From Candidatus Levybacteria bacterium RIFCSPLOWO2_02_FULL_37_18 (GTDB taxonomy: Bacteria > Patescibacteriota > Microgenomatia > Levybacterales > UBA12049): DNA of 64,000 nucleotides. This document shows positions 26,441-58,005 of the stretch, piece by piece. Location: contig MFPD01000019.1 of NCBI GenBank assembly GCA_001784115.1, forward strand, positions 30,244 through 94,243, read 5' to 3'. The first letter of the stretch is position 1; each line of letters opens with the position of its first letter. The notes below the pieces were generated by a model. The model was not told the origin of the DNA. It ran no database searches and saw only the letters and a program-made list of their open reading frames with translations. The translations under genes and the position numbers were made by a program.

Positions 26441-26508
26441 GTCATTGCGAGAAACGTAGTAACGAAGCAATCTCTTAATATGAGATTCATTGCTACGCTC
26501 GCAGTGAG
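26441..26508. repeat. Palindromic intergenic element, copy A (GTCATTGCGAG ... GCAATCTC-loop-GAGATTC ... CTCGCAGTGAG)
   Basis: Near-perfect hairpin between the glyQS start and the recO stop. Confidence 0.7.
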
Positions 26509-26561
26509 AAAATGTATATTGTTATAATAACAAAAAAGAAGAGGAGAATAAAGAAGCCATT

Positions 26562-27104
26562 TTACGAAAACTGGGGAATAATTTTTATTGCCTTAAGTCT
26601 CTTTTCTAAGATATCTTCTATAAACAAAGATGAGTCGAAATGTTGAGCAGCAAACTGAGGGGAATAAAACCCCAAAGCAGTCAAAAGTTCTATCTCGAAT
26701 TTCTTAACTAACAAACTAACATATTCTTCCTTTGAAAGCTTATCAAGCATGTCAAGCAACAGTGCATACACGTATTCATTCTCCTGATTTTCCGGACACA
26801 AACTATCTACTAATTCACACAGGTGATATGCATATCCAATACGTGATAACGAACGTTTTATGTCCGAATACGTATTGAGTGATTGAGCCTCTGTTAACAC
26901 CGGCATTCCATTATTTTTATAAACTGTTAAAAGCGTATGATTGAGAAGCTCTATGTGAGCAGATCTTCTACTGGTGATTTTTCGCACCCCCGAAGCTTTA
27001 ATGCTTAGTTTGCCATGTTTTTTGGCAAACACAGTCAAAATCCGATCTGCCTCATTATAATTTTTCCGTTTGATAACAATAGCTTCTGTTGTAAATGTTT
27101 TCAT
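26562..27104 (-). CDS. recO: DNA repair protein RecO (short form)
   Basis: 180 aa with an N-terminal OB-fold block. Confidence 0.65.
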   Translation of the reverse strand: MKTFTTEAIVIKRKNYNEADRILTVFAKKHGKLSIKASGVRKITSRRSAHIELLNHTLLTVYKNNGMPVLTEAQSLNTYSDIKRSLSRIGYAYHLCELVDSLCPENQENEYVYALLLDMLDKLSKEEYVSLLVKKFEIELLTALGFYSPQFAAQHFDSSLFIEDILEKRLKAIKIIPQFS

Positions 27105-27116
27105 TTTATTTTTCCT

Positions 27117-27214
27117 GTCATTGCGAGGAACTTTAGTTCCGAAGCAATCTTTCTATTGTCATGCTGAACTTGATTCAGCATCTCGTGAGATTGCTTCACT
27201 TCGTTCGCAATGAC
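27117..27214. repeat. Palindromic intergenic element, copy B (GTCATTGCGAGG ... TCGCAATGAC with an inner GCTGAActtgatTCAGC hairpin)
   Basis: Terminal inverted repeats and an internal hairpin. Confidence 0.7.
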
Positions 27215-27230
27215 ATTAGTAACATATTTA

Positions 27231-29174
27231 TTATAGGTTTAGTGTAAGAGTTTTGTCGGTTAATAACCCAAATTTTTCTTTTTGCGTTCCGTTGACTTTA
27301 ATTATGTATTCGTTTTTATCTGTACCTGGTTGTTTTTGAATTAACAATGGTAAGATATTGTTTTTAGCTTTAAAGGGAAGCGTATACTTAATGTTATACA
27401 CTGCGGTACCCAAAGGTCTGACTGTTAAAAATCCTTCAAAGACTGTTTTTCCTAAATCTTCGGCAGTTGTTACTTTTACTTCTGATCCTTGACTACTAAC
27501 CAATGTACTTCCTTTTGGTACGTAAATTCGTATCCAATCCCTAAACGTTGCGTTAATGCAAAGTCCTCCTCTTTCTAAATTACAATCAGACGGAGGATGA
27601 GGATTTTTGTAATTAATGGTAATTGTTTTAGTAATTGTCCCGCTATTATCTGTTTCTATATTTTGGGTCACTGCTTCTTGGGTAAAAAGATTTGATTTTG
27701 CTCCTCCCATATTCGCTTCGTTAATATGGAGGTAATCTCCATCAAATGCTTTAATTCTACCGGCGGCATTCAAGGCTTCAATTCCGCTTTGGGCGTCTTT
27801 GTCATAGAGATAAAACAATATATGTTTTTGGCTTACTTCATCAAGCAACTGTTGGAATAAAGGCCCCCAATATAATTTAGGAGAAGACTTAAGCGCTTTT
27901 TCCATAATTGAATAAAGCAATGCTCCCAAGATATCTTTTCTTCCTTCTTTTTCGTATCCAACCGGACGGGTAATATTATCCTCAAGTTCATAAATTACCT
28001 GTGGACAATCACATCTTTTATCTTGTTTTGTCGTAAACGCAATACCGGCTGCATCTACTCTATCGTCTAATTTATTTATAATAGAAACTAATACATGAGT
28101 ATCTAGAGCAATTATTCCATCAACATCTGTTTTTGAGCGTGCGAATTTATATAAAGAATTAAATGTATTCATAGACTCTACAAAATCAGGAGAAAGATTC
28201 GTATCTCTAATATTAAAATTAGGTACATTTGGTAAGTATTTTAAAATAGGATCCGGAGCTGGAAATGTTTTTGTCAGACTGTTGTCTAAATTATAAATAT
28301 CTTCAGACCTGTCTACATGAATTACTCCTTTTTCGATTCGAAATACAGCGTATGCTGTCATAAATCCGCCTGTAGGGCGAAGTTCTTTATCGTTTTGAAA
28401 CAAAATCAAGTATTTTCTGTCTTTTGACTCACCTAAAAGCGAAGGCAATACTTTTACCAACGGTCTTGCCTCGCTTACAAATGTAACTCCTTCATCTGCG
28501 AATGTTCTTACTGTTATCAGTTGTTTTCTGATCTTTTCTCCACCAAAAAACGGCGGGTAATGATTTGGGTTTACTTGGTCAATTTCTTCTTGCGCCGAAA
28601 GGAGCAACGATGATACGTCATCAATGCGAGGAGTGATTTTTGCCATTGTCAAAACCGCAGTTTTAATCCTATCTTCCGCACTTCCCATAACAAAACTTCC
28701 TCCCTGTCCCTTAAGACCTAAAACATCGGCATAGGGCTTTAAAGAATCAACTAAAATAGACGCTGCGTCAAGACCATAACCGCCTGCTTTTACCAAATGG
28801 TCTGCGTCTCCATAATAAAAATTTAAGACCGGAATAAAACGAAGTATGGAAAGCGTTGATAAATCTTGCTGTAATTGTTTTAAATCTTCTTTTGTTTTAA
28901 TTAGTTCTGTTGAGGCAAGCTCGACATTTTGTTTTTTAATCGCTTCCCAGGCTTTTTTTGCTTGCCTCTGAGTCCGCATAGATGCGGAGTATATTTTTCC
29001 AACCGGATATACAAGTAAAAGTCCCAACAAAATAATACCGATTACCATGCAAAACCCAACGCCGAATTTCTTTTGTGGGAGTTTAAATGTTTTCAGAGGA
29101 GATGTGAACACACGCTGGTTATCAGGTTCAGATTCATCTAGCTTACCAAGATCAATCTTCTTAAATTCAGACAT
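27231..29174 (-). CDS. Hypothetical large membrane-anchored protein (N-terminal TM, coiled-coil, extracytoplasmic domain)
   Basis: 647-aa ORF with no recognisable catalytic motif. Confidence 0.4.
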   Translation of the reverse strand: MSEFKKIDLGKLDESEPDNQRVFTSPLKTFKLPQKKFGVGFCMVIGIILLGLLLVYPVGKIYSASMRTQRQAKKAWEAIKKQNVELASTELIKTKEDLKQLQQDLSTLSILRFIPVLNFYYGDADHLVKAGGYGLDAASILVDSLKPYADVLGLKGQGGSFVMGSAEDRIKTAVLTMAKITPRIDDVSSLLLSAQEEIDQVNPNHYPPFFGGEKIRKQLITVRTFADEGVTFVSEARPLVKVLPSLLGESKDRKYLILFQNDKELRPTGGFMTAYAVFRIEKGVIHVDRSEDIYNLDNSLTKTFPAPDPILKYLPNVPNFNIRDTNLSPDFVESMNTFNSLYKFARSKTDVDGIIALDTHVLVSIINKLDDRVDAAGIAFTTKQDKRCDCPQVIYELEDNITRPVGYEKEGRKDILGALLYSIMEKALKSSPKLYWGPLFQQLLDEVSQKHILFYLYDKDAQSGIEALNAAGRIKAFDGDYLHINEANMGGAKSNLFTQEAVTQNIETDNSGTITKTITINYKNPHPPSDCNLERGGLCINATFRDWIRIYVPKGSTLVSSQGSEVKVTTAEDLGKTVFEGFLTVRPLGTAVYNIKYTLPFKAKNNILPLLIQKQPGTDKNEYIIKVNGTQKEKFGLLTDKTLTLNL

Positions 29175-29226
29175 AGTACTAATCTACCCAATACTCTCTT
29201 CCATGTCAAGCTTCCCCTGGCTCTAC

Positions 29227-29305
29227 GTCATTCTGAACTTGTTTCACCGCGTCTGACGCGGGGTTTCAGAATCTAAAAATAGAGATGCTGAACCAAATTC
29301 AGCAT
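29227..29305. repeat. Palindromic intergenic element, copy C (GTCATTCTGAAC ... CGCGTCTGACGCG ... TTCAGAATC, plus GATGCTGAAccaaaTTCAGCAT)
   Basis: Nested hairpins between the 647-aa gene start and the tyrA-pheA stop. Confidence 0.7.
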
Positions 29306-29313
29306 TACAATAA

Positions 29314-30639: not shown

Positions 30640-30650
30640 ACATCTATAAT

Positions 30651-30730
30651 GTCATTGCGAGGAGACACGTCTGACGTGTTCGACGTGGCAATCCCCTGAA
30701 TAGAGATTGCTTCGCTTCGCTCGCAATGAC
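30651..30730. repeat. Palindromic intergenic element, copy D
   Basis: GTCATTGCGAGGagacacgtctgacgtgtt ... GCAATC ... GAGATTGCttcgcttcgcTCGCAATGAC. It exactly fills the tyrA / chorismate mutase spacer. Confidence 0.7.
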
Positions 30731-30733
30731 AAT

Positions 30734-31003
30734 TTAACTCTTCCTTTCAATATCTAAAGACAAATTATGAATAACACCAAACAGTTTTTTAACAAATTCT
30801 GAAGGAAGATTCACTAATGTTCCTCTTAGTATTCGAGACGAAATAATCTCCTCCCATCTTTTTATATCTAAAGGATTTTCTCCCGATAATTTTTTTAGTC
30901 TGCCGATTTTTTTAACTGCCTCAAATCTTCTTGCCAAAATCTTAATGAGTTCCTCATCGATTTCATCTATTTCTTTTCGTATATCTTCTAAATCTTCATT
31001 CAT
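30734..31003 (-). CDS. Chorismate mutase (AroQ class)
   Basis: 89-aa all-helical protein (IRKEIDEIDEELIKILARRFE). Confidence 0.7.
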   Translation of the reverse strand: MNEDLEDIRKEIDEIDEELIKILARRFEAVKKIGRLKKLSGENPLDIKRWEEIISSRILRGTLVNLPSEFVKKLFGVIHNLSLDIERKS

Positions 31004-31011
31004 ACAGAGTC

Positions 31012-31074
31012 GTCATTGCGAGGAACTTGTGACGAAGCAATCTCACCAAGAGATTCCTTCGCTATCGCTCGCAG
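31012..31074. repeat. Palindromic intergenic element, copy E
   Basis: GTCATTGCGAGGaacttgtgacgaaGCAATCTCaccaaGAGATTccttcgctatcgCTCGCAG. It is flush between the aroC stop and the chorismate mutase start. Confidence 0.7.
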
Positions 31075-32187
31075 TTACAGGTAATCATAATTTTGGGCTT
31101 TGTGGCGTAAAAAATGATCCATAATTACCAATGCTGCCATTGCGTCAACAATCGGGACAGCCCGTGGCAAAACACAGGGATCATGTCTACCTGCTGCTTC
31201 AAGTTTTACTTCCTTTTTGTCTTTAGAAACAGTCAACTGCTCTTTTTTAATAGTTGAAACCGGCTTAAAAGCAACCCGAAAGTAAATTGTTTCTCCATTA
31301 GAAATCCCGCCCAAAACTCCTCCTGCATTATTGGTTTTTGTTCGTATCATAGAGTTTTCAAGATGGAATGGATCATTATGATTACTTCCTCGAAGCTTTG
31401 TCCCTTCAAAGCCTAAACCGATATCAAATCCTTTTACAGCGTTTATGGAAAGCATAGCTTTTCCTAAATCCGCATTAAGCTTATCAAACACGGGCTCACC
31501 TAAACCTACGGGTACATTTTTAATAACTCCCCTTACTACTCCGCCAATAGAATCTCCTTCTGATTTGACCTCCTCAATGAGCTTAATCATTTCCTCTGCA
31601 ACTTTGTGGTCAGGACACCTGACAATGTTTGATTCGATTTCTTCCATCGTAACCAAATTAAAATAAATATCAGTCTTAATCTGCCCAACTTGTTCCACAA
31701 AACTAAAAATTTCTACCCCAAGTTTTTCTTTTAAATATTTTTTTGCAATAGCCCCAGCAGCAACTCTGGCTAACGTTTCCCGTGCGGAAGCCCTACCGGA
31801 ACCATGCCAATCTCTAAAACCGTACTTTTTGGTATAGGTAAAATCTGCATGCCCAGGTCTAAATACATCTTTGATTTCCTGATACTCTTCAGGCCGAACG
31901 TCTTTGTTATAAGCCAAAAGTAAAATTGGCGTGCCAGTTGTTTTACCCTCAAAAACTCCTGACATTATTTTTATTTCATCTTCTTCTTTTCGGGGAGTTG
32001 TAATAGAAGATTGTCCCGGTTTTCTTCTGTCTAACTCTTTTTGAATTTCTTCTTCAGAAATTTTAATTCCAGGAGGGCAGCCGTCAACCACGCAACCAAC
32101 CACCCCGCCGTGGGATTCGCCAAACGTTGTAATCCTAAATAAATGTCCAAATGTATTTCCGGCCATAAGATTTCTCTTTTCTGTCAT
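31075..32187 (-). CDS. aroC: Chorismate synthase AroC
   Basis: 370 aa. The canonical N-terminus [21 protein letters not shown] suggests the true start is ~32166. The track start at 32187 lies inside palindromic element copy F. Confidence 0.9.
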
Positions 32188-32236
32188 CCCGGGCTTGACC
32201 CGGGATCAATAGATTCTGAATCAAGTTCAGAATGAC
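32183..32236. repeat. Palindromic intergenic element, copy F (GTCATCCCGGGcttgaCCCGGGATcaatagATTCTGAAtcaagTTCAGAATGAC)
   Basis: Lies between the aroD stop and the probable aroC start. Confidence 0.7.
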
Positions 32237-32237
32237 A

Positions 32238-33721: not shown

Positions 33722-35607
33722 AGTTTTAACAAAATCTCTTCAACAACTTCCTTAGGGCTTAATGTATCTGTTGCTATTATTTCATCTGCTGCCTGTCCAT
33801 ACAAGGTTTTTCGCTGTTTAAGAACCTCTCTTATTTCTTCTTTTCTGTTTTTTTTATTGGTTAAAAAGGGCCTATTTTTGGTATTGCCGGTTCTTTTTAC
33901 TAATGTTTCAACAGAAGCATCAAGCAAAACTAATGTGCCGCTTTTTTTAAGTGTGCTTACACTTTCTGTGTTAATAACAACTCCACCGCCCGTTGAAATA
34001 ATTGTATCAGAATATACGGCAACTTCTTTAACAACATCTGATTCTACTTTTCTAAAATAAGCCCATCCGTATTTTTCAACTATTAGAGCTATTGGCATAC
34101 CGACTTTTTTTGCCAACATCTCATCGAGTTCTATATGATTTTTTTGTAGTTTTTCCGCTAGCAGCTTTGCCACAGTTGTTTTACCGCTTCCCCGCATACC
34201 GATTAAAACAATATTTCTCCTCTTGTCGTTGCGATCCCGCTCAGCGGGAAAAGCAATCTCTGCGAGCTTCATCCAAAAATCAGGAAATGTTTTATTAACT
34301 ACCAAAGGGTTTTGTATTTCCATTCCCGAAAGCCTTGCACCGGCAACGGCAAAAGCCATTGCCATTCTATGATCTCCGTATGTTTCAATAGAAGCAGACT
34401 TTGGATTTCCTCCGTAAATTGTTAGAGTTGAATTGCTAGAGTCAGTTTTAATTCCCATTTTTTTTAATTCGTTTTTAATTGCCAAAAGCCGGTCTGTTTC
34501 TTTGATTTTAAGACTTTTAACACCGTGTATAATTGTAGTTCCATTTGCAAATGCGGCCAAAACCGAAAGGGTCATAACTTGATCCGGACAATTTTCCATA
34601 TTAACGTTTATAGGTCTTATTTTCCCCGAGCCTTTAACTGTCACTGCATTTTTTTTATACAATATTTTATTTCCCATTTTCTCTAAAATCTGCAAAAACT
34701 CTCTGTCAGCTTGCAAAGAATATGGATTAAGATTTTGGATTGTGATTGTTGAACCGGTCAAAGCAGCAATTGCAAAAAAATAAGAAGCGCTGGAAAAATC
34801 TCCTTCAACAGAATATTCTTTCCCGTTATATTTTTGTTTAAACATTTTATAACTTTTGTAGTTATTGTTAATTACGTTTGCTCCAAACTGTTTCATGGTA
34901 TCAATAGTCATATCAATATACTGCTTTGAAATTTGATCCCCCAAAACTTCAATCTCAACACTCCCTACTTTCGGAGCAATCATAAGCAAACTTGAAATAA
35001 ATTGACTACTAACTGATCCTTTTATTTTTACTGTTCCTTCGTTTAGTTTTGAACTTAAAATTTTAACCGGCGGATATCCTTTTTTACCAAGATATTCTAT
35101 TTTTGCACCCATTTGAATTAGGGCATCAACCAAATCTCCAATTGGACGATTGTTAAGTCCTTCTTCTCCAGATACTGTTTTAACTCCGGGAATAATGCAT
35201 GCAAGGGCTAAGATAAACCTCATGGTTGTTCCCGAAAGTCTAGCACTCAAAGAGTACGATTGATTATTCGCCTTGTTGTCATCCCGAACTCGCTTCAGCC
35301 GCGTTTGACGCGGTTTCGGCATCTCTTGTTTCAGCATTTTAGATCCTGAAATACCTTGCCTGCCGGCAGGCAGGAATTCAGGATAACCGGGAAAGATCTC
35401 TATGTAGTTATTTCCTACATGAACATTTACTCCCAGCGCTCTCAAACATCTTATCATCGCCTCCGTGTCTTCACTTACCAAAGGATTGATAATCGTAACC
35501 TTCTTTTCCGTCAAAGCAGCCAAAAATAAAGCTCTATTGGTGTAGCTTTTTGAGCCCGGTATGTCTATGGTTTTTGCAACTGGTTGTTGTAATGGAATAA
35601 TTTTCAT
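33718..35607 (-). CDS. aroA: Bifunctional EPSP synthase (AroA) - shikimate kinase (AroK) fusion; the AroA N-domain carries a ~45-aa palindromic-element-derived insertion
   Basis: 629 aa. The AroA core (IPGSKSYTNRALFLAAL ...) is followed by a C-terminal shikimate kinase P-loop (GMRGSGKTTVAKLLAEKL). The insertion FLPAGRQGISGSKMLKQEMPKPRQTRLKRVRDDNKANNQSYS is encoded by repeat copy G. Confidence 0.85.
   Translation of the reverse strand: MKIIPLQQPVAKTIDIPGSKSYTNRALFLAALTEKKVTIINPLVSEDTEAMIRCLRALGVNVHVGNNYIEIFPGYPEFLPAGRQGISGSKMLKQEMPKPRQTRLKRVRDDNKANNQSYSLSARLSGTTMRFILALACIIPGVKTVSGEEGLNNRPIGDLVDALIQMGAKIEYLGKKGYPPVKILSSKLNEGTVKIKGSVSSQFISSLLMIAPKVGSVEIEVLGDQISKQYIDMTIDTMKQFGANVINNNYKSYKMFKQKYNGKEYSVEGDFSSASYFFAIAALTGSTITIQNLNPYSLQADREFLQILEKMGNKILYKKNAVTVKGSGKIRPINVNMENCPDQVMTLSVLAAFANGTTIIHGVKSLKIKETDRLLAIKNELKKMGIKTDSSNSTLTIYGGNPKSASIETYGDHRMAMAFAVAGARLSGMEIQNPLVVNKTFPDFWMKLAEIAFPAERDRNDKRRNIVLIGMRGSGKTTVAKLLAEKLQKNHIELDEMLAKKVGMPIALIVEKYGWAYFRKVESDVVKEVAVYSDTIISTGGGVVINTESVSTLKKSGTLVLLDASVETLVKRTGNTKNRPFLTNKKNRKEEIREVLKQRKTLYGQAADEIIATDTLSPKEVVEEILLKL
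35278..35375. repeat. Palindromic element, copy G, inside the aroA coding sequence and in frame
   Basis: GTCATCCCGAACtcgcTTCAGcCGCGTTTGACGCGg ... cttGCCTGCCGGCAGGCagg. It shares the CGCGTYTGACGCG and CCTGCCGGCAGG modules with other copies. Confidence 0.65.
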
Positions 35608-35613
35608 ATTGTT

Positions 35614-37520: not shown

Positions 37521-37525
37521 ATGTA

Positions 37526-37556
37526 TAAAAAAACAAAAACTCCCTTCAGGGAGCTA
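37526..37556 (-). terminator. Intrinsic-terminator-like hairpin plus U-tract abutting the DAHP synthase start codon (candidate attenuator)
   Basis: Minus strand reads AGCTCCCTGAAGGGAGTTTTTGTTTTTTT and ends ~6 nt before the ATG. A second small hairpin, CTCCGAAGGGAG, lies ~50 nt upstream. Confidence 0.45.
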
Positions 37557-37738
37557 GCTTGGTCTATTCGTAATTGGTTTTACGACGTCAACAAGCCCTC
37601 CCTTCGGAGTTTATAAAATAAAACCAAAAATAAGCTTCGCGACTTATAATCACACTATAGGTATAGTATACAAAACTCTTTACTCTAAAGTCAAATTAGT
37701 ATTTTCATAAATAACTGTTCACAGTTCTAATACAGACT

Positions 37739-37833
37739 GTCATGCTGGAGTGTAAACGATAGCATCTAATTTTGGGAGGTGGTTCTTCGACCTGCCTGCC
37801 GGCAGGCAGGTCGGCCTTAAGCCTCAAGAATGA
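37739..37833. repeat. Palindromic element, copy M, in the aro-operon leader; includes a perfect 26-bp palindrome CGACCTGCCTGCCGGCAGGCAGGTCG (37788-37813)
   Basis: The ends GTCATGCTGGAG ... CTCAAGAATGAC form imperfect inverted repeats. The GC-rich palindrome is shared with copy G. Confidence 0.6.
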
Positions 37834-37917
37834 CAAGTTTATGTCAAAGGAGTAAACAGTTACCTTTATCTTTGACACCCTTGGGGTGGAAACGAAGCTG
37901 CACCCGCGGATTTTATG

Positions 37918-38709: not shown

Positions 38710-38780
38710 ATTTTATTGAATCATGTTGTATTGCTGCATTGCTAAATTGTTAACAATGAAGCAATCGAACAATTTAACAA

Positions 38781-40004: not shown

Positions 40005-40054
40005 GATTATAAATTTTAAACATTAAAAATTGAATAAAAATTAAAAATTTCAAA

Positions 40055-40684: not shown

Positions 40685-40770
40685 GTCATTACGAGGAGGT
40701 CGCTTGATGCGACCGACGCGGCAATCTCCTAATCGTAAAACTACGATTGCTTCACTTCGTTCGCAATGAC
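40685..40770. repeat. Palindromic element, copy H; its distal inverted repeat encodes the last codons and stop of trpC
   Basis: GTCATTACGAGGaggtcgcttgatgcgaccgacgcgGCAATCTCctaatcgtaaaactacGATTGCttcacttcgtTCGCAATGAC. The coding strand of trpC ends ...ttg tca ttg cga acg aag tga (LSLRTK*). Confidence 0.7.
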
Positions 40771-41549
40771 AATATAAAATCTTTTATATTTTTCGCTTTC
40801 ATTAAACTCGTTCCCACAAGCACTCCTTTTGCTCCTGCTTCCCTATATTTTTGAACTTCTTGCGAACTTTTGATTCCTGAGAATCCCAGTTTTATAAATT
40901 TGTCTGGAACTTGTTTTAGAATTTCAGATGCTCTATCAACATCCACCTCAAAAGTATCCAAATCTCTTGCGTTAACTGCAATTATATATGGTTTTGAGTC
41001 GATCGCTCTTTCTATATGTTCTAAACTATCAATTTCAACAACTGGTTCAATACCTAAACCTATGGCATATTGAACTAATTCAGAAAGTTTTTTGTTACCA
41101 ACAATTCTTGCAATTAAAAGCACCGCATCAGCGCCTGATTTTATACCTTCGGCAATTTGATATGTATCAATAATAAAATCTTTCATAAGAATGGGAAGAT
41201 TGGTATTTTTCTTAATTTGATCAATTAGTTTAATATCTCCATTAAAAAAATGTTTTTCAACAACTAAAGAAATTGCATCAGCGTCTGCTTTTTCATATGC
41301 TTTTACCCGCTTTAGAATAGTTTTTTTTGAACCAAGATCTCCTTCACTTGGAGACGCTAACTTAATCTCCGCAATCAGAGTAATATCTTTTTTTGGATTG
41401 AGAATCGAATTCCTGAAATTACTCAAATTATAAACCGTTCCTTTTCGAGATTCTGGATGCGCCTTCGGCTTACCAGAATGACGTTTTTTTCTTTTTTTCA
41501 AATCTCTTTTTGTTTGCTCAACTATTTTTTGAAGTATTTTATTTTTCAT
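40752..41549 (-). CDS. trpC: Indole-3-glycerol phosphate synthase TrpC
   Basis: 265-aa TIM barrel. The C-terminus LSLRTK is contributed by repeat copy H. Confidence 0.85.
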   Translation of the reverse strand: MKNKILQKIVEQTKRDLKKRKKRHSGKPKAHPESRKGTVYNLSNFRNSILNPKKDITLIAEIKLASPSEGDLGSKKTILKRVKAYEKADADAISLVVEKHFFNGDIKLIDQIKKNTNLPILMKDFIIDTYQIAEGIKSGADAVLLIARIVGNKKLSELVQYAIGLGIEPVVEIDSLEHIERAIDSKPYIIAVNARDLDTFEVDVDRASEILKQVPDKFIKLGFSGIKSSQEVQKYREAGAKGVLVGTSLMKAKNIKDFILSLRTK

Positions 41550-42576: not shown

Positions 42577-42583
42577 CTACTTG

Positions 42584-42625
42584 TCATTGATTCCTTAATT
42601 GTCATTCTAAACTTGATTCAGAATC
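42584..42625. repeat. Palindromic element, copy I (GTCATTCTAAACttgaTTCAGAATC); one arm supplies the trpG RF* terminus
   Basis: The coding strand of trpG ends ...aga ttc tga within the TTCAGAATC arm. Confidence 0.6.
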
Positions 42626-44563: not shown

Positions 44564-44569
44564 ATTTTT

Positions 44570-44830
44570 ATAAACAAAAACCCTTGTAAATTTCCAAACG
44601 TTTTCTGTTTGACTATTTACAAGGGCCTCTTAATGAGACGGTGCCACCTTGTTTATTTACTTATTCATGCTCTTCTTTTCTTAGTCCAGCCAAGCGGATA
44701 AAAAACAAAGAGTGCTGTCTTCTTAGGGTTTCGCCTCCCCCGCATTACGTCAGTCGCGTTTGACGCGATGAATTTTGCGAAAGCTTCCTGGATCCAAACT
44801 TCCAGATCACAGCTTTTAAAACTACATTAC
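44570..44830 (-). ncRNA. Candidate T-box riboswitch leader (tRNA-Trp sensing) with terminator and antiterminator, controlling trpEGDCFBA
   Basis: The minus strand has a T-box core AGGUGGCACCGUCUC, 9/10 match to GGUGGUACCG. Terminator: GGCCCTTGTAAAT ... ATTTACAAGGG + TTTTTGTTT ending 8 nt before the trpE ATG. The alternative antiterminator pairs ACAAGG with CCTTGT, leaving a UGGCACC bulge. A UGGA sits in an upstream hairpin loop (CTGGAaguuUGGAuCCAG). Confidence 0.55.
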
Positions 44831-44856
44831 ATGTAATATACCATATTGTTTCAGAT

Positions 44857-45522: not shown

Positions 45523-45525
45523 ACG

Positions 45526-46608: not shown

Positions 46609-46612
46609 ACAT

Positions 46613-47689: not shown

Positions 47690-48809
47690 AAACTTCCAAT
47701 GTCTTATACGTTAAATCTCTCCAGGAAAATTTTTTCACCAATAGTAAACCTTTCTTTTTTTGCGACTCTATTCTATCATCTTTTTTTAATACCCGCATGA
47801 AAACTCCACCAATGCTTGAAACATTTTTTGGATCAAAGTAAAAAGCTGCATCGCCAACTATTTCTCTATGAACCACGATATCTGATAACATCACCAAACA
47901 ATTATTACTCATTGCTTCTATGACTGGCAGGTCAAATCCCTCCATACGTGCTGGACTCACAAGCGCTTTTGCATTTTTATAAAGCTCTGCAAGCTCTCTG
48001 TCTGTAACATATCCATAAAAAATTAATGAGTGATCTATTCCATTTGAAATAACATATTTCTTTAATTTCCTATAAAAATAATCCTCTTTCCCAACCAAGA
48101 CAAGTTTGAGATCTTTATGAACTTTATGAACAAAATCTTGAACAAGTAACTGTTTAAACGCATCAATTAATCTAACTAAGTTCTTGTGTGGATACGCATT
48201 CCCAACGTAAAGAAAGTATGAACCTTTAGGTAATTGGTATTTATTTGAAATTTGAAATTTGAAATTTGAAATTTTTTTGTCTATTCCTTCATACGTCACA
48301 ACTATTTTTTCCGGATCAACTTTATAGTGATCAATTATCTCTTTTTTTGTTGCTTGCGATACGGTAATTATTTTTTGCGCTCTATTAATTGCATGGCTTA
48401 TCACATGCTTATATCCTAATCGTTTTAACTGATAAATCCCCAACGGAAGAGTCGATGCCTCTCCTGTATCAAAATGATTAATAATCAAATCATGAATGGT
48501 AACTACAAAACTCCCCTTGTAAAAAATAGGCACAGAAAAATAAGGAAAATGAACAAGATCAAGTGTTTCTTTGTTTAGAATTTTTGGAAATTGTATTTGT
48601 TCTTCAATCGTATGCCACCGAATGTTCGTTCGAACAACCTTGAACTTGTCATCCTGAACTTGATTCAGTATCTCTTGTTCATCCTTTTCCAAACAAAACA
48701 ATACATACTCATTCTTCTGACCAAGTTTATGCAGTTGACCAACAAGATTTCGAATATATCTTCCAACTCCGCTCTCATTCCACAATCTTACATCGATACC
48801 AATCCTCAT
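47658..48809 (-). CDS. Glycosyltransferase family 1 (GT4-type) with two in-frame repeat insertions
   Basis: 383-aa GT-B fold. It carries a heptamer-repeat peptide KKISNFKFQISNKYQ in the interdomain linker and a palindromic-element copy K encoding EQEILNQVQDDK near the N-terminus. Confidence 0.7.
   Translation of the reverse strand: MRIGIDVRLWNESGVGRYIRNLVGQLHKLGQKNEYVLFCLEKDEQEILNQVQDDKFKVVRTNIRWHTIEEQIQFPKILNKETLDLVHFPYFSVPIFYKGSFVVTIHDLIINHFDTGEASTLPLGIYQLKRLGYKHVISHAINRAQKIITVSQATKKEIIDHYKVDPEKIVVTYEGIDKKISNFKFQISNKYQLPKGSYFLYVGNAYPHKNLVRLIDAFKQLLVQDFVHKVHKDLKLVLVGKEDYFYRKLKKYVISNGIDHSLIFYGYVTDRELAELYKNAKALVSPARMEGFDLPVIEAMSNNCLVMLSDIVVHREIVGDAAFYFDPKNVSSIGGVFMRVLKKDDRIESQKKKGLLLVKKFSWRDLTYKTLEVYESCHRLRSG
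48244..48275. repeat. Tandem heptamer repeat (TTTGAAA)x4 in frame inside the GT4 gene 47658..48809
   Basis: tttgaaatttgaaatttgaaatttgaaattttttt, encoding ISNFKFQISN. Confidence 0.9.
48648..48672. repeat. Palindromic element, copy K (GTCATCCTGAACttgaTTCAGTATC), inside the GT4 coding sequence and in frame
   Basis: It is the same hairpin module as copies C, I and L. Confidence 0.6.
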
Positions 48810-49681: not shown

Positions 49682-49682
49682 A

Positions 49683-50876: not shown

Positions 50877-50879
50877 AGC

Positions 50880-52304: not shown

Positions 52305-55300
52305 TTAACTTTGAAGATTTTCTTCCTTTCTATAACCCTTCCTTCGCTATCAAACACAAATACCTTATCGTTTAGCGGGTTTACTACCCTATCAAATGCC
52401 TGATCGAGTGAAGAAGTTTGAAAAACATTGATGTGTGAATTTCTAAATGAAAACCATACAGCGTCTTTTAACCCAACTGGAAAAATCCATGCCTGTCGAT
52501 AACGAATCGGTACATTTACAAAATATAGATTTATTGGTTCTGTTGCCCAATAATTTGAATAAGCTGAGTCAATTGTGACAAGAAAATTTTTTACTTTGTC
52601 ACCTGCTTCAGACCAATCTGTATGTATTTGCTGAAGTTGCATAATATGTAAAACAGCAAACATGGAAATAAATACCGTTAAACCTAAATATGCTATATCT
52701 TTTCCGCTATTTTTTAATAACCCAAATAAACTTTTAAATGCATGCACTAAAACTAATACTTCTCCCATCGATGCCAAATAGCTGTATCTATAACTAATAT
52801 TTCCAAGACCTAAAAATGGAAGTAATGCAATAATAAAAAAACCAAATCCAAAACAGACAATTTTTCTATCGTCTTGATTAATTTTATTCATTACAAATCG
52901 AAAACTTAAGAATAAGAAATATCCCGTAATCAAAATAATTATTGCTGAAATAAAAAAATGATTCTTAGAAATAGCTCGGAAACTTTGAAACACAGGCAAA
53001 GATAGCGATCCAAGTATGTTTAATAAAAAATAACTTATTGAGTTTGCGACAAAGTTGAAAGGAAGTTTAAAAACGTTATAACTATAATCTCCATTAAACC
53101 AATGACTATCTGCTACAAAACGTATCAATAGGTAAAATGGAATTATTGCAGATAAAATTTTTAAACTTTTTTCTCTTACCGTATCTTTTAAGCTGTAATT
53201 TTTTTCAAAAATCAATATATATAATCCAATAAGGATTGGTGTTATAATACCTAGTTCATGAAACAAAAGACCCAATACCAAAGATACTATCGATAAAACA
53301 AATAACGAATTTTTATGATTTTCTCTCCAGGTAATAAAAATAAGTAAGCTAGAAATTGAAAATAACGAAGTAAACAAAAATCCGGTTGCTGAAATCCAAA
53401 AAACAGTTTCAGAATATCCGCTTAAAATTAAAAACAAAATAGATGAAAACATTGCAATTTTGTAGTCCTTCAACAATTTTTTAACAAGAAAAAAGAATAC
53501 AACGGAAACAAGACAATGAAGAATAAGAGAAACAATATGATACATTGTTTGATTTAGCCAAAACATTTGATACATTGCTAGAAAATATAATTTTGCACCT
53601 GGTCTGTAGAAAAATCCGTCTGAAGAAATGAAATAACGAAATAGATTACTATCATTAGAAACCCATTTTAACCAGGTAAAATCATCACCAATAAAGTAAT
53701 TATTAATCATTTTTGAATAAAGCGTTACACAGATAACCACCAAGTACAAAACACTACTAAAGGAAGATGTTAAAAATTGTTTGATTTCTTGGTATAAATT
53801 TATTTCCCTTTCTTGAAATAAGTGAAGTATTCCAACTGTTATACCCATAAGCAACCATAACATAAAAGCAACTTTTGAAGCTTCAAAAACATCGATGAGC
53901 GTTGCGTTTAAAGCCAATCCAATAACCCCAGACAAAAAACCTAAAACAAAACTTTTTGCAACAGGAGAAGTAATACTTGGTAAAAGTTTTTTAAGGTAAA
54001 TCCCAAAGATTAAAAATATCCCAAAAAAGGAAATAAATCCAAGTATTCCTGTTTCACCTAAAATTCGAAGATAATTATTGTCTACTGCAAGGCTTACCGA
54101 AGAATATCCGCTGCCCAAAAAAATATTTCTTTGAAATGCGGAAATTGCCTCCGGCCATTGTCCCTGGAAACGAGTTGTAAAAGAAAGATCGTATGCTGTT
54201 GCTTTTTTTATCAAAAAATCTCCATGAAACATAAAAGTATCTGCTGTTAGATTTTTTTGTTGGACAGGTCTGTCATAAAAAAACTCTCCTACGTGACTGG
54301 CTACCGGAGAAAGAAGGAGATTTATGTATCCGGTTCCGTGTGGAAGATTTTCTCCCGTCGAAGTATTCGGAGGAGAAAGCAAATTAACTGTAGGAGAAAG
54401 AACAGAAATTGGAACAATAGCAGAGGCTGGCGGAAACACTTTAGAATCTTCTTTCTTTCCTTCAACAAGCTGGGATTTGTCTGAGTAAAATCTTCTTTGA
54501 ATAATCTTATTTTCAAAATAAGTAGAGGGAACTTCATGTATTTCGCCAATTTCCTGACCGGTTTTTGCATCTACTAAGACGGTAATTTCTTTTAACGTAC
54601 TGTTAAATCGCTCAAGCAGCCTAGACGAAAAACTCATCATAAATATTCCAACGATTACCACAACCGGAATAAGGAAAATAAGCATTTTTTTCTTTTGAAA
54701 CAAAACAACTAAAAATAACGATAACAATAAAACGAAAAAAGACACCCGCGATATAGTCATATAAAGCGCAATAAAACCAAAAAAAACCGACAGCACAATA
54801 ATGAGTTTTCCAATCCGGTTTTTAAGTCCAAACAGTAAGCTGACAAGAATCGGGATTACCAATACTAAATACGCTGCAAAATCATAATGCCCTCCGAATG
54901 TTGATGGAACGCGAGATAATCGTGAAAGGTGTATCGGTATCCCTTTGGCAAATTCTTCATTCATGGTTAAAAATGCCGGAAACCCAATATATTTTTGCCC
55001 AATACCATATAAAGAAACCGTCAAAAGCGTTATTGACAAAACGCCAATAACAAACGGCAGCATGGATTTTTGCCTAAAAGAAGCGAATGCGAGAAAAAAT
55101 AAGCTAAGATATTCAATGTGCCTTAGAAAACTCAAAAAAGCTATGTTTGGAAATACCTTGGAAATAAATGGAAAAACAAAAAGCATCGCATGAATTGTAG
55201 TTACCGCACCTACAATCCAAAACGCAAAGATTGGTATCGTTAACGGTGTTTTTAAAGAAATCTTTCGTTTAAAAAGAAGTAAAAACCAAACCGAAAGCAC

Positions 55301-55450
55301 ACACACGACAAGAAAATCTTCTATTCTCACATATACCCATGTGTTTTTAATATCAATCAAAGGAAGTTTCGGATACAAAGGAATAAATGCCAATAAAAAA
55401 AGGGTAAAAACAAAAAGGATATTTTCTAAAATCCACTTAAATGGTTTCAT
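52301..55450 (-). CDS. Very large polytopic membrane protein (two polytopic domains; O-antigen-ligase/Wzy-like N-part plus a GT-C-like C-part)
   Basis: 1049-aa ORF with >20 predicted TM segments. The central GSGYSSVSLAVDNNYLRILGETGILGF is compatible with the Wzy_C region. The call is uncertain. Confidence 0.4.
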   Translation of the reverse strand: MKPFKWILENILFVFTLFLLAFIPLYPKLPLIDIKNTWVYVRIEDFLVVCVLSVWFLLLFKRKISLKTPLTIPIFAFWIVGAVTTIHAMLFVFPFISKVFPNIAFLSFLRHIEYLSLFFLAFASFRQKSMLPFVIGVLSITLLTVSLYGIGQKYIGFPAFLTMNEEFAKGIPIHLSRLSRVPSTFGGHYDFAAYLVLVIPILVSLLFGLKNRIGKLIIVLSVFFGFIALYMTISRVSFFVLLLSLFLVVLFQKKKMLIFLIPVVVIVGIFMMSFSSRLLERFNSTLKEITVLVDAKTGQEIGEIHEVPSTYFENKIIQRRFYSDKSQLVEGKKEDSKVFPPASAIVPISVLSPTVNLLSPPNTSTGENLPHGTGYINLLLSPVASHVGEFFYDRPVQQKNLTADTFMFHGDFLIKKATAYDLSFTTRFQGQWPEAISAFQRNIFLGSGYSSVSLAVDNNYLRILGETGILGFISFFGIFLIFGIYLKKLLPSITSPVAKSFVLGFLSGVIGLALNATLIDVFEASKVAFMLWLLMGITVGILHLFQEREINLYQEIKQFLTSSFSSVLYLVVICVTLYSKMINNYFIGDDFTWLKWVSNDSNLFRYFISSDGFFYRPGAKLYFLAMYQMFWLNQTMYHIVSLILHCLVSVVFFFLVKKLLKDYKIAMFSSILFLILSGYSETVFWISATGFLFTSLFSISSLLIFITWRENHKNSLFVLSIVSLVLGLLFHELGIITPILIGLYILIFEKNYSLKDTVREKSLKILSAIIPFYLLIRFVADSHWFNGDYSYNVFKLPFNFVANSISYFLLNILGSLSLPVFQSFRAISKNHFFISAIIILITGYFLFLSFRFVMNKINQDDRKIVCFGFGFFIIALLPFLGLGNISYRYSYLASMGEVLVLVHAFKSLFGLLKNSGKDIAYLGLTVFISMFAVLHIMQLQQIHTDWSEAGDKVKNFLVTIDSAYSNYWATEPINLYFVNVPIRYRQAWIFPVGLKDAVWFSFRNSHINVFQTSSLDQAFDRVVNPLNDKVFVFDSEGRVIERKKIFKVK

Positions 55451-56265
55451 AGAGTCGAAAGAAATGCCTGTTTATATGTTTTTAGTAAATAGTTATTCCC
55501 CGTTATGGCCCCAATTATAATTGCCGCAAGTGCCTTTAGCATAAGTAATAACCTCAACACAGTATATTCTACGCTGCTTTTGTGCTTTTTGTAAAAATAT
55601 TGTATTCCTTTATATATTTGAATAATCGCAAATGACCTGCTTGAACTTCCCTGACCAAGATGAATCACTTGACTTTCTGGTAAAAAAAATATTTTATACC
55701 CTAATTTTTTTATTCTAAAACAAAGTTCCATATCTTCAGCATACATAAAAAAATGTTCGTCAAATCCATTAATTTCCTTAAAAAGATCGCCTCTTGTAAG
55801 AAAAAAAGATCCTTCTACCCAATCAACTTCTTGTTTAATTTTCGGAACAAAATGATTTTCCAAAAAAACATGCAGTAAAGAGTAAAAATGTCCGGCCGAT
55901 TTTCCGCCGACTACTCCTACATCATTTCTATTATTCAAAAAATTCACCATTATATGAATTGTTGAGCTATCGTTAATAACAGCATCTGAATTTAAAAAAA
56001 GTAAAAACTCTCCATTTGCTTTTTTTGATCCAATATTATTTCCTTTACCAAAACCAACATTTTCACTGTTTTCTATAACCAATATTTTCTTGTATATTTT
56101 TTTAAAAAACCCAACCGTAGCATCGGAAGAATTATTGTCAACGACTATAACCTCAAACTTATTATCTTCTATTTCTTTTTTGTAATATTTAAAAAGTGAA
56201 TCAAGACATTGTATTGTTAAATCTTTCGTGTTAAAAGTAACGATTATAATAGAAAGCGTGATCAT
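55447..56265 (-). CDS. Glycosyltransferase family 2
   Basis: 272 aa with IIIVTFNT ... VVDNNSSD ... YAEDMELCFR. Confidence 0.8.
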   Translation of the reverse strand: MITLSIIIVTFNTKDLTIQCLDSLFKYYKKEIEDNKFEVIVVDNNSSDATVGFFKKIYKKILVIENSENVGFGKGNNIGSKKANGEFLLFLNSDAVINDSSTIHIMVNFLNNRNDVGVVGGKSAGHFYSLLHVFLENHFVPKIKQEVDWVEGSFFLTRGDLFKEINGFDEHFFMYAEDMELCFRIKKLGYKIFFLPESQVIHLGQGSSSRSFAIIQIYKGIQYFYKKHKSSVEYTVLRLLLMLKALAAIIIGAITGNNYLLKTYKQAFLSTL

Positions 56266-56271
56266 GAAAAA

Positions 56272-56841
56272 TTATCGAAACCATGCGGCCCTGCCTAATG
56301 TATATGACAAGTCAGAAACAGTCCTTTTTTCAATTACTTTTGCCGGAACTCCTCCAACTATATCCATTGATTCAACATTTTTGGTAACTATTGCCCCTGC
56401 TGCAACTATACAACCTCTTCCGAGTGTTACTCCAGGAAGAATGATGCTTCGTGGACCAATGAATACGTAATCCTCCACAACAACTGGTGCGTGTATTGGA
56501 GTAAAATTAGGATTTTGTATATCATGTTCGGAATTATAAATCATTGCCTCGGTTGCAATGGCAACATGACTTCCAATTGAAAGCCTGTCTCGTCCGTCTA
56601 AAGCAGTCCCTTCGCCTACAATCGTGTCATTCCCAATTACAATGTTATGAGAATTATAAAATCGTACACCCATGTGAATGGTAGTACCTTTGCCAATTTT
56701 TACGCCACTTAATCTATAAAAAAATCTTCTGATAAAATGAGATGGAATATTTCCCACAAAACTGTTGAGAAAAAACATTTCTAATTCCAAAAATATTGTC
56801 CATATTCTTCTTTTTACTTTATTTAAAATTGAATCATTCAT
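56272..56841 (-). CDS. Hexapeptide-repeat (LbH) O-acetyltransferase (WbbJ / maltose acetyltransferase-like)
   Basis: 189 aa with hexapeptide repeats (IGNDTIVGEGTALDG ... IGPRSIILPGVTLGRGCIVAAGAIV). Confidence 0.75.
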   Translation of the reverse strand: MNDSILNKVKRRIWTIFLELEMFFLNSFVGNIPSHFIRRFFYRLSGVKIGKGTTIHMGVRFYNSHNIVIGNDTIVGEGTALDGRDRLSIGSHVAIATEAMIYNSEHDIQNPNFTPIHAPVVVEDYVFIGPRSIILPGVTLGRGCIVAAGAIVTKNVESMDIVGGVPAKVIEKRTVSDLSYTLGRAAWFR

Positions 56842-56842
56842 A

Positions 56843-57985
56843 TTATTTTTCTTCTACAATCTGCTCCAAAACAGTAAGTGTAAGACGTGCGGTTTTTTCC
56901 CAACTAAATTTTTCTACTTGAATTTTTCCTTTTTCTATTAGCTCTGATCTAAGTTTTACATTGTTAAGCAACAATGCCATTTTTTCTTTTATATCCTGAG
57001 TATCTAATGGATTAACATACAAGGCTGCGTTTCCTCCTGCTTCCGGAAGACTGCTAACATTGCTGGTTATGACCGGACAACTATATTTCATCGCTTCCAA
57101 AACAGGTAAACCAAAACCTTCATACAAACTGGGAAGAACAAAAAATAATGCGTTTTTATAAAGTTGGGCTAATTCTTTATCCGTTGCAAAATCCAAAAAC
57201 TTAACACTTTGTTCTACGTTAAATTTTCTAGGAGCATCCAAAATTTCTTCATATAACCATCCCTTTTTACCAACAATCACAAGATCAATATCTTTTTTAT
57301 CCAAGAGAGAAAACGCCTCGATGAGTCTAACAATATTTTTCCTCGGCTGAAGCGTCCCCACGAATAAAATGTAGTTTTTTTTTATATTAAATCTCTCCTG
57401 TAAAACTTTTGACTTTTGCATTGTAATTTTGAATTTTGAATTTTGAATTTTGAATTTAATTCCCGGGTATGTTACCACTACTTTATCTTCTAAAACCCCG
57501 TACTGTTTGATTATATCACCTTTACTTGCGTTGCTTATAGTAAAGATCTTTTTAGCCTTTTTCACCGAATAACGAGTCCAATTTTTAAGCTGAAATAAGT
57601 CAGATTGTTTAAAAAGCTCCGGAAAATGCAGAAAAGACAAGTCCATCACAGATATTGCACAAGGAACAGGGGAAAATCTGGGAGCATAATGTGTGGGTGT
57701 AAAAAAAACATCAGAACGTGGAGAGTGAAGAAACAAATCAATTGGCAATCCAATCTGCGTCCACAATTTCTTAGGTCCAACGATTCGATACTTCCATCCT
57801 GGCCTTTCCTTTGGTAAATCATTAATTGGTTTGTTCTTTACATATATTATGAATTGGAAATTGGAAATTGGAAATTGGAAATTTTCGAATTGTTTTATCA
57901 ATTCGAATGCGTATTCTCCAATTCCTACTCTTTGACTTTCATTTGCTTCATTTCCATCGATACCTATTATCATAGTGAGTGTCAT
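56843..57985 (-). CDS. Glycosyltransferase family 1 (GT4-type) with two in-frame heptamer-repeat insertions
   Basis: 380-aa GT-B fold. It carries NFQFPISNFQF in the N-terminal domain and KFKIQNSKFKI after YPGI in the interdomain linker. The track ATG lies inside palindromic element L, so an internal start at ~57973 (MIIGIDG) is possible. Confidence 0.7.
   Translation of the reverse strand: MTLTMIIGIDGNEANESQRVGIGEYAFELIKQFENFQFPISNFQFIIYVKNKPINDLPKERPGWKYRIVGPKKLWTQIGLPIDLFLHSPRSDVFFTPTHYAPRFSPVPCAISVMDLSFLHFPELFKQSDLFQLKNWTRYSVKKAKKIFTISNASKGDIIKQYGVLEDKVVVTYPGIKFKIQNSKFKITMQKSKVLQERFNIKKNYILFVGTLQPRKNIVRLIEAFSLLDKKDIDLVIVGKKGWLYEEILDAPRKFNVEQSVKFLDFATDKELAQLYKNALFFVLPSLYEGFGLPVLEAMKYSCPVITSNVSSLPEAGGNAALYVNPLDTQDIKEKMALLLNNVKLRSELIEKGKIQVEKFSWEKTARLTLTVLEQIVEEK
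57424..57458. repeat. Tandem heptamer repeat (GAATTTT)x~5 in frame inside the GT4 gene 56843..57985 (linker)
   Basis: taattttgaattttgaattttgaattttgaattta, encoding KFKIQNSKFKI. Confidence 0.9.
57851..57885. repeat. Tandem heptamer repeat (GAATTGG/AAATTGG)x5 in frame inside the GT4 gene 56843..57985 (N-domain)
   Basis: gaattggaaattggaaattggaaattggaaatttt, encoding NFQFPISNFQF. Confidence 0.9.
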
Positions 57986-58005
57986 TCTGAACTCGTTTCA
58001 GAATC
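57981..58005. repeat. Palindromic element, copy L (GTCATTCTGAACtcgTTTCAGAATC)
   Basis: It sits exactly at the junction between the truncated GT4 paralog and the full GT4 gene. Confidence 0.6.

Follow-up and report, generated by a model that had tools for sequence, protein, structure and literature searches.

Small palindromic DNA elements were analysed in a 64,000-nt stretch (hereafter the window) of the genome of Candidatus Levybacteria bacterium RIFCSPLOWO2_02_FULL_37_18 (contig MFPD01000019.1, positions 30,244 to 94,243), a bacterium of the candidate phyla radiation (CPR). The window had a G+C content of 35%, and nearly all of its genes were encoded on the minus strand. Pfam scans identified a trp operon in the order trpE-G-D-C-F-B-A (44563 to 37918, minus strand), which was followed by an aro operon (37520 to 29314) encoding DAHP synthase, aroB, an aroA-aroK fusion, aroE, aroD, aroC, chorismate mutase and prephenate dehydrogenase/dehydratase (PDH/PDT). 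A DUF4012 gene, then recO and then a class II aminoacyl-tRNA synthetase (aaRS) gene were located 3' of the aro operon. An initial annotation of the sequence had listed 12 copies of a palindromic element, most of them in the spacers of these operons.

The expected sequences were found at 12 of 12 listed positions, and the copies were far more frequent than chance would produce. Within the window, GTCATTGCGAG with up to one mismatch returned 8 matches relative to 0.55 expected, a count reached in 0 of 100 shuffles, and 5 matches, relative to 0.00 expected, were returned by the 25-nt short unit GTCATTCTGAACTTGATTCAGAATC when as many as three mismatches were allowed. A hidden Markov model (HMM) profile of the half-element, trained without the window copies, solely on those of other phyla, recovered 8 half-elements at the five sites of the longer, type-A form described below (E 3.5e-9 to 8e-3). 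When folded as single-stranded DNA (ssDNA), intact copies reached z scores of -5 to -8 and decayed copies -1.4 to -3. A first permissive hairpin scan was unspecific (22 found vs 13.6 expected) and stricter tests were used instead. A scan for the 15-mer CGCGTYTGACGCG was uninformative, the motif being too short for a collection of this size. Rfam returned nothing at gathering thresholds for the window or for 14 loci from several phyla. Beyond the 12 listed copies, the window contained one extra decayed candidate (38724-38779), and a small palindrome stood by itself at 44755.

The basic unit was a tagged hairpin, comprising C or T followed by GTC, a stem that begins with AT, a loop, a return stem ending in AT, and then a C. 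All units in the window started with C/T plus GTC, and the GTC tag and the trailing C were present in every intact unit. The short B unit reads tGTCATTCTGAACTTGATTCAGAATCt; the short units GTCATTCTGAACTTGATTCAGAATC and GTCATCCCGGGCTTGACCCGGGATC had perfect 8-bp stems and 5-nt loops, and the units at 27158, 32183, 32212 and 57981 likewise combined perfect 8-bp stems with the 5-nt loops CTTGA, CTTGT or CTCGT. The type-A element was composed of two inverted units with their tags outward (GTCATTGCGAG...GAAGCAATC / GATTGCTTCG...CTCGCAATGAC). Its left unit ran GTC-ATTGC-GAG, a variable small hairpin, then GAA-GCAAT-C, and was followed by an apical spacer and the mirror image, such that a type-A half reads tGTCATTGCGAG...GAAGCAATCt. 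Inverted pairs with outward tags made up 7 of the 12 listed copies. Small palindromes (CGCGTYTGACGCG or CCTGCCTGCCGGCAGGCAGG), or a whole short unit in one case (27158-27182), were nested in loops or spacers, and the tails of the window units were CTAA, CAAT, CTCA and CTCG. Covariation between the two arms, which the initial annotation had put forward as a check, was borne out in part: the apical extension paired at 72% of positions cf. 53% when shuffled, but variants near the core were mostly uncompensated on the other arm. Because variants beside the core usually lacked compensation, each type-A half behaves as its own unit, and the pairs as heterodimers.

Type-A inverted pairs, none of which has an orientation of its own, were found in both operons and beyond their 3' end. 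The pair at 30651..30730 in the chorismate mutase–PDH/PDT spacer was intact and carried a side hairpin, ACACGTCTGACGTGT; it was 3 nt from the preceding stop and 11 nt from the following ATG (HMM E 3.5e-9 and 3.2e-6; -25.3 kcal/mol, z -6.7). In the DUF4012–recO spacer, the pair at 27117..27214 stood 16 nt from the preceding stop and left 12 nt up to the ATG, gave half-HMM matches on both arms and a DNA fold of -27.3 kcal/mol (z -7.9), and held in its apical loop the complete short B unit mentioned above, with its tag on the plus strand. The pair at 26441..26508 in the recO–aaRS spacer had a decayed right terminus (CTCGCAGTGAG) and was separated by 54 nt from the recO stop and by 8 nt from the aaRS ATG (half-HMM match at 26439-26474, E 1.8e-7; fold z -3.3). 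At 31012..31077, a decayed right terminus overlapped the aroC stop and 8 nt remained before the chorismate mutase ATG (HMM E 1.3e-8; fold z -2.3). At 40685..40770, the right half gave trpC its last codons and stop (…LSLRTK), with HMM matches on both arms and a fold z of -3.9. A candidate decayed type-A remnant, also without orientation, was noted at 38724..38779 in the trpB–trpA spacer, where an imperfect palindrome carries the motifs GATTGCTTC and GCAGCAATAC; this candidate was weakly supported, and the HMM did not recover it.

Two further elements were heterodimers of short units with outward tags, again unoriented. Both units were perfect at 32183..32236 (GTCATCCCGGGCTTGACCCGGGATC, tag on plus; GTCATTCTGAACTTGATTCAGAATC, tag on minus; z -5.2), which followed the aroD stop by 1 nt and left 16 nt before what is likely the true aroC start. 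The heterodimer at 29227..29308 (z -4.6) consisted of a B unit at 29227-29273, with its tag on the plus strand and the small palindrome CGCGTCTGACGCG in its loop, and a B-like unit at 29284-29308, with a degenerate tag (GTAAT) on the minus strand; a sense-strand T-run followed the latter, forming a terminator-like site (29305-29285) after the last aro gene. Composite elements were found at 35278..35375 (plus strand), in frame within the aroA-aroK coding sequence, and at 37739..37833 (unoriented), in the 397-nt trpA–DAHP synthase spacer. The first combined decayed units and the palindrome CCTGCCGGCAGG with a tagged unit in which CGCGTTTGACGCG is nested (fold z -3.4), and the second had a tagged unit at its left end, a central 26-nt palindrome (CGACCTGCCTGCCGGCAGGCAGGTCG) and a decayed inverted unit ending in AAGAATGAC. 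Lone short B units, all assigned to the plus strand, completed the set. At 42583..42625, a unit with one mismatch (42601-42625) was preceded by a partial tag, TGTCATTGATTCC, and contained the trpG stop. The unit at 48648..48672 (two mismatches) was in frame in the coding sequence of a GT4 glycosyltransferase, where it encodes EILNQVQDD; an alignment with glycosyltransferase paralogues showed no clear length insertion at this site. The unit at 57981..58005 lay between two glycosyltransferase open reading frames (ORFs) and abutted the TGA of the upstream one, a 208-aa ORF (58006-58632) that has an N-terminal GT4 domain only and may be a gene truncated at the B unit.

Two descriptions in the initial annotation, namely that the elements fill their gaps to the nucleotide and that all share one orientation, did not survive closer comparison with the genes. 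At 9 junctions, the element started 0–16 nt past the upstream stop or overlapped it, that is, near the 3' end of the upstream ORF, and ended 8–16 nt before the next start codon, leaving room for a ribosome-binding site. The recO–aaRS gap held a further 54-nt spacer, and the trpF–trpB gap had no element. The last codons and the stop codons of both trpC and trpG were within elements, and the start of the long ORF reported for aroC fell inside an element, with the likely true start 42 nt downstream. Two copies were intragenic (35278-35375 in aroA-aroK and 48648-48672 in the glycosyltransferase gene). The former corresponded to an insertion of ~32 residues in AroA (LPAGRQG...RLKRVRDD), immediately before the conserved LSGTTMRF motif and with the reading frame kept, which was missing from 11 of 11 aligned orthologues. 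Overall, 10 copies were clustered in 16 kb of the aro/trp region cf. 2 in the other 48 kb.

As for orientation, most copies have none because they comprise two inverted units with their GTC tags facing outward. A shared orientation, with the tag on the plus strand, was limited to the lone units (42601, 48648 and 57981) and the tagged unit of 35278. GC skew was negative throughout the plus strand; therefore, the gene-bearing minus strand is the leading one, for which the tagged strand serves as template. The units in question number four or five, each set among co-directional genes, which allows no further reading of their orientation; in other loci, the orientation of lone units relative to genes could be read in 2 informative cases only, an underpowered comparison.

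The trp-aro gene order was kept in three related Microgenomates genomes, in which the junctions measured -14 to +32 nt and contained no elements, cf. 41–94 nt for the element-bearing junctions of the window. Because the junctions of the relatives are tight and element-free, the window elements are lineage-specific insertions and not conserved operon regulators, which upholds the view in the initial annotation of elements inserted into operon junctions. One site appeared to be shared: a single type-A unit in Daviesbacteria (L300:5340-5382) was placed at the trpC-trpF junction and shared its exact codon position (…F[IL]L|SLR…) with the inverted pair of the window (40745-40775), while the trpC-trpF junction of a third relative was an ordinary overlapping stop/start. 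This is either an ancient common insertion or one target site hit twice. Near-identical metagenome contigs showed no presence/absence polymorphism of the elements. When positions 23718-45607 of the window were compared with L001/L002, 4 of 14 strain differences were within elements, which represent 3.7% of the compared sequence (P = 0.0014). Because these 4 differences sit in so small a share of the sequence, the elements evolve faster than their surroundings, which suggests relaxed constraint or hairpin-associated mutation.

The elements were not confined to this lineage. The type-A pattern was found in at least 120 genome stretches from more than 10 phyla, with ~1 chance match expected in the 596 Gb searched. 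Hosts included Bradyrhizobium, sphingomonads, Rickettsiales, Gamma- and Deltaproteobacteria, Bacteroidota, Chloroflexota, Cyanobacteria, Planctomycetota, Nitrospirota and several CPR lineages, the last of which comprised Levybacteria, Woesebacteria, Daviesbacteria, Berkelbacteria and Saccharibacteria. In type-A copies from other phyla, GCAATCCAG was read in 79 of 174. Across 2.05 Mb of loci from many phyla, tagged hairpins numbered 76 cf. 7–27 for control 3-mers; a C followed in 84% of these and a C or T preceded in 89%. The commonest loops were CTTGA and CTTGT, as in the window, and stems varied freely with pairing kept. Among viral contigs, 92 carried the type-A pattern and 59 the short B unit. 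ORFs within 1.5 kb of 230 copies (212 loci) were clustered, and no recurrent transposase family was found; the only recurring neighbours were structural genes of phages or gene transfer agents and spurious read-through ORFs.

Some viral contigs (L176:3052-3440, L152, L163 and L183) had three type-A copies, and those of L176 were in tandem with a spacing of ~156 nt, adjoining phage structural genes. Separately, the 20-nt palindrome CCTGCCTGCCGGCAGGCAGG was seen as an independent, tagless repeat, both in the window (35355-35374 and 37788-37813) and in 35 viral contigs. In three of the latter (L362:8616, L385:2284 and L392:515), two copies were inside tRNA-Met-like sequence at the position of the variable arm and one was in a tRNA D-loop.

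One gene was found between matching type-A ends. In Woesebacteria (L116), a gene for a 97-aa GIY-YIG protein was preceded at a distance of 17 nt by a type-A unit, and a full type-A pair stood 2 nt past its stop. A Daviesbacteria GIY-YIG gene (L217) lay between GTCATTGCGAGCAAAGCGAAGCAATC and ATTGCTTCGTCGTTTTACTCCTCGCAATGAC, and in Levybacteria (L218/L219) the right type-A half began at the GIY-YIG stop codon. The proteins encoded between type-A halves at these loci were 96–98 aa long and single-domain. A metagenome sample contained 80 independent loci encoding this GIY-YIG subfamily; in 60 of 77 of these TCGCAATGAC was found within 150 nt 3' of the gene, and in 38 of 78 GTCATTGCGA was found within 120 nt 5' of it. 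The proteins had a single PF01541 domain and 62–74% identity across phyla, and their catalytic residues Y8, Y19 and E66 were spaced as are Y6, Y17 and E64 of SsnA, the residues that were mutated in that enzyme.

These features bear directly on what the elements are. The initial annotation had not recognised the family as a described one; this view could not be maintained, as the features match those of CGTC-tagged repetitive extragenic palindromic (REP) sequences (PMC3733652) and of the NTS and Ssn-related motifs (SRM; PMC11893778). The CGTC-tagged REPs, comprising families CGTC-1 to CGTC-4, were described by Di Nocera, De Gregorio & Rocco (2013, BMC Genomics 14:522; PMC3733652). They are defined by a terminal CGTC tag (often TGTC, with a CCTC variant) and 8–9 bp stems that start from A-T and T-A pairs, and have 4–5 nt loops and a short unpaired tail with the consensus CCA. 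They occur mostly as inverted dimers, including heterodimers, capable of folding into a single large hairpin, and lie between co-directional or convergent ORFs near the 3' end of the upstream one, with in-frame genic copies and no dedicated transposase; the superfamily takes in Neisseria dRS3 and Rickettsia RPE-4 and RPE-6 (PMC3733652). The NTS (CGTCATTCCCGCGMAVGCGGGAATCYRG) extends dRS3 (Chenal et al. 2025, Nat Commun 16:2388; PMC11893778). It is bound and cut, solely as ssDNA, by SsnA, a small single-domain GIY-YIG protein that cleaves beside the tag and on the tagged strand only; the three bases (GTC) before the palindrome are needed for cleavage and the C after the palindrome for binding, and ssn genes are typically flanked by the motif (PMC11893778).

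We estimate a probability of about 0.75 that the window elements are DNA hairpin repeats of this CGTC-tagged REP/SRM superfamily, making them a new host record and not a new kind of element. By their features, they are a somewhat diverged, AT-rich variant of the known superfamily. The initial annotation's suggestion of small, non-autonomous palindromes of REP or Rickettsia palindromic element (RPE) type was retained, but the hallmarks of Correia elements and of MITEs (miniature transposable elements with inverted repeats), namely target-site duplications and a DDE-type origin, were not seen. Because the ends are the same and a variable apical spacer stands in place of the gene, the type-A elements of the window look like gene-less versions of the motif-ssn-motif unit, as far as their anatomy allows us to infer.

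Several observations pull the other way. The published SRM pattern, which was derived from 29 genomes in 4 phyla (PMC11893778), HGTCWYN(0-2)YYVSBRHN(0-5)WNVSBRGN(0-2)RNCYNB, had 0 matches in the window. It misses the window units because their AT-rich stems fail at the S/B positions and their tails fail at CYNB; this failure weakens strict membership and leaves the shared architecture unaffected. The type-A outer stem is 5 bp (ATTGC/GCAAT) with a structured interior, in contrast to the canonical 8–9 bp stem and 4–5 nt loop, and the exact type-A string was not in the supplements of the 2013 CGTC REP paper. A tblastn search found no GIY-YIG gene in the 64-kb window, nor was there one in the 9 kb beyond the window start, and the Levybacteria GIY-YIG gene (P0174) probably belongs to sister populations, judging by accession ranges. 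Short B/C units were not seen beside the GIY-YIG subfamily: they occurred in 1 of 58 loci, and there they were far from the gene. The subfamily itself would be cd10448 (Ssn) by its size, its single PF01541 domain and its catalytic spacing. Separately, a full-text literature search with DNA strings and read-through peptides returned unrelated primers and terms only.

As a possible explanation of how the elements came to be where they are, we propose that they were copied in this Levybacteria lineage into permissive places, namely the sequence past stop codons and ahead of ribosome-binding sites, and a surface loop of AroA. Copying would probably depend on ssDNA and on a cognate Ssn-type nuclease that may be encoded elsewhere in the genome or supplied horizontally. 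Once inserted, the elements have side effects, providing stop codons and C-terminal residues for TrpC and TrpG and ~32 residues for AroA, and forming stable hairpins in polycistronic mRNA. A bolder and more doubtful extension holds that type-A is the non-autonomous form of a mobile element, outside the known transposase classes, whose sole gene encodes the ~96-residue GIY-YIG ssDNA nuclease. Such a unit would travel across phyla, with CPR bacteria and phages among its hosts, and leave gene-less pairs at stops and inside genes. Identical ends with and without the gene, the 62–74% protein identity, the viral copies and the lineage-specific insertions are compatible with this idea. The analogy with insertion sequences was already raised by Chenal et al. 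(PMC11893778).

An unlikely alternative, the functional proposal of the initial annotation, was that the elements are kept mainly as RNA, with intercistronic hairpins setting mRNA stability, processing or partial termination in the aro/trp operons. The elements are transcribed within operons and fold stably, they are placed right past stops with 8–16 nt spared for the ribosome-binding site, and one unit after the last aro gene has a T-run behind it and is terminator-like; moreover, many REPs have been argued to act as RNA (PMC3733652). However, the operons of three relatives do without the elements, with genes that overlap or abut, and some copies are also in-frame parts of coding sequences. 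Sequences identical to them turn up amid unrelated genes, in phages as well as in more than 10 phyla, no Rfam family matches, and the elements account for 4 of 14 strain differences (29%) in 3.7% of the sequence. The conserved GTC tag and trailing C are unpaired, and these are features that matter to a DNA nuclease. The mRNA hairpins of the initial annotation can be kept as a possible side effect, given that the elements are transcribed and stable, but are unsupported as the reason for which the elements exist.

A domesticated host system, in which motif clusters mark incoming ssDNA for Ssn cutting and so modulate transformation in a competent CPR bacterium, was judged distinctly improbable. 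There is a precedent in Neisseria, where SsnA of N. meningitidis makes transformation with DNA that bears the NTS ~5-fold less efficient and where NTS copies are concentrated near particular genes (PMC11893778). CPR bacteria possess comEC and pili and are regarded as competent (PMC12455944), and the clustering in the window (10 copies in 16 kb vs 2 in 48 kb) is strong. That clustering could, however, simply mirror where insertions are tolerated. Moreover, in-frame insertions and decayed copies look neutral or slightly harmful, and the lack of an ssn gene in the window and the 9 kb beyond its start also weighs on the idea.

Miniature transposons moved by a conventional transposase, either of DDE type (MITEs) or of the IS200/IS605 Y1 type (REPs with REP-associated tyrosine transposases (RAYTs), or their paired form, REPINs), are a very remote prospect: the terminal inverted repeats, the small and numerous copies and an inverted-pair layout that recalls REPINs and bacterial interspersed mosaic elements (BIMEs) are outweighed by the lack of consistent target-site duplications (the flanks of 27117, 30651, 32183 and 40685 share no direct repeat), by a YGTC tag instead of the GTAG of RAYT-associated REPs, by the absence of any RAYT or IS200 gene flanked by CGTC units (PMC3733652) and of any transposase family recurring near the 230 copies, and by the GIY-YIG nuclease being the only gene found between matching ends. 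Both the MITE and the REP/RAYT readings fail their defining tests. The initial annotation was right that no transposase is encoded in the window, but the IS200/IS605-type TnpA it suggested as the mobiliser gave way to the small GIY-YIG genes that type-A halves flank.

Other kinds of structured repeat were considered and set aside. Integron attC sites did not apply, as there were no GTTRRRY core sites and the genes are core operon genes; intrinsic terminators were rejected as there were no T-runs save at 29285-29305, and CRISPR-like arrays as there was no regular spacing in the window.

The leaders of the two operons had structures of their own. The trp leader (44564-44856, minus strand, 293 nt, before trpE) gave a weak full-length T-box match at 44618-44819, which scored 27 bits where the gathering score is 93 (E 2.5e-4, 341 nt searched). 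The leader contained the canonical AAGGUGGCACCG, and a terminator hairpin (44581-44625) with a T-run was located 14 nt before the trpE ATG. Stem I was mostly missing, and the small palindrome at 44755, CGCGTCAAACGCG, was an insertion in the alignment. The trp leader is likely a diverged T-box attenuator in a CPR genome. In the aro leader (37521-37917, minus strand, before DAHP synthase), a terminator-like hairpin (37538-37555), whose T-run immediately precedes the start codon, suggests attenuation; a Phe_leader-like match was sub-threshold (27 bits vs 55) and no known family explains this leader.

Two neighbouring features were also recorded. A region 5–10 kb beyond the window start (L215:15356-20976) contained a tyrosine integrase gene, a helix-turn-helix regulator gene and unannotated small genes after ftsZ, and is a probable integrated element beside the cell-division cluster. 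Within the window, a second, stand-alone gene of the EPSP-synthase family (11539-12888, 449 aa) was found in a cell-wall (mur) cluster, and its product is probably MurA rather than a second AroA.

These results extend the known range of CGTC REPs and Ssn-related motifs to CPR bacteria, several further phyla and viral contigs. They also matter for annotation, in that such elements produce spurious ORFs, shifted starts (aroC), donated stops (trpC and trpG) and added peptide (AroA). Gene-less type-A elements, together with GIY-YIG genes that have the same ends, represent a widespread test case for how transposase-less hairpin repeats multiply, and suggest candidate nuclease-substrate pairs from CPR bacteria that could serve as ssDNA tools.

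Among known systems, Neisseria Correia elements and other bacterial MITEs are likewise small, abundant and intergenic, have inverted repeats, are co-transcribed with their neighbours and can affect mRNA; these differ in their target-site duplications and in their origin from DDE-type insertion sequences, neither of which was seen here. With REPs/BIMEs and the REPIN-RAYT system, the elements share short tagged hairpins, inverted doublets able to fold into a single long hairpin, repeats on either side of a single-copy protein gene, and recognition of ssDNA. In contrast to the REPIN-RAYT system, the tag is GTC and not GTAG, and the associated protein is a GIY-YIG nuclease without known strand-transfer activity and not a HUH/Y1 transposase; whereas REP families are usually lineage-specific, the window family is near-identical across phyla. 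RPEs are also palindromic repeats that lie in frame inside protein genes and are tolerated as extra peptide, as are the ~32 residues in AroA. Here, however, the host is a free-living or episymbiotic CPR bacterium from groundwater and not Rickettsia, and most window copies are intergenic. The link to RPEs is drawn from the statement that RPE-4 and RPE-6 are CGTC REPs (PMC3733652) and from a type-A copy in a Rickettsiaceae genome (L051).

The closest likenesses were to the CGTC REPs and the NTS/SRM. The window elements differ from the CGTC REPs in their tails (CTAA/CAAT/CTCA vs CCA), their AT-rich stems, the 5-bp outer stem and variable internal hairpin of type-A, and a host range that goes beyond the five phyla of 2013 to CPR/Patescibacteria, Chloroflexota, Cyanobacteria, Planctomycetota and Nitrospirota. 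They share with them the unpaired CGTC/TGTC tag, the A-T/T-A start of the stem, short units with 8-bp stems and 5-nt loops, the arrangement mostly in inverted dimers that include heterodimers, the location between co-directional genes close to where the upstream ORF ends, the occasional in-frame copies and the lack of a flanking transposase. From the NTS/SRM they are set apart by the failure of the published pattern on window copies, by a window without an ssn gene and by B/C units that are not beside the sampled GIY-YIG subfamily. Nevertheless, both have the same CGTC-AT-stem-loop-stem-AT-C architecture, with GTC before and C after the palindrome, both have a wide range of phyla, and in both the repeats stand around small single-domain GIY-YIG genes, with type-A halves forming the same motif-gene-motif arrangement.

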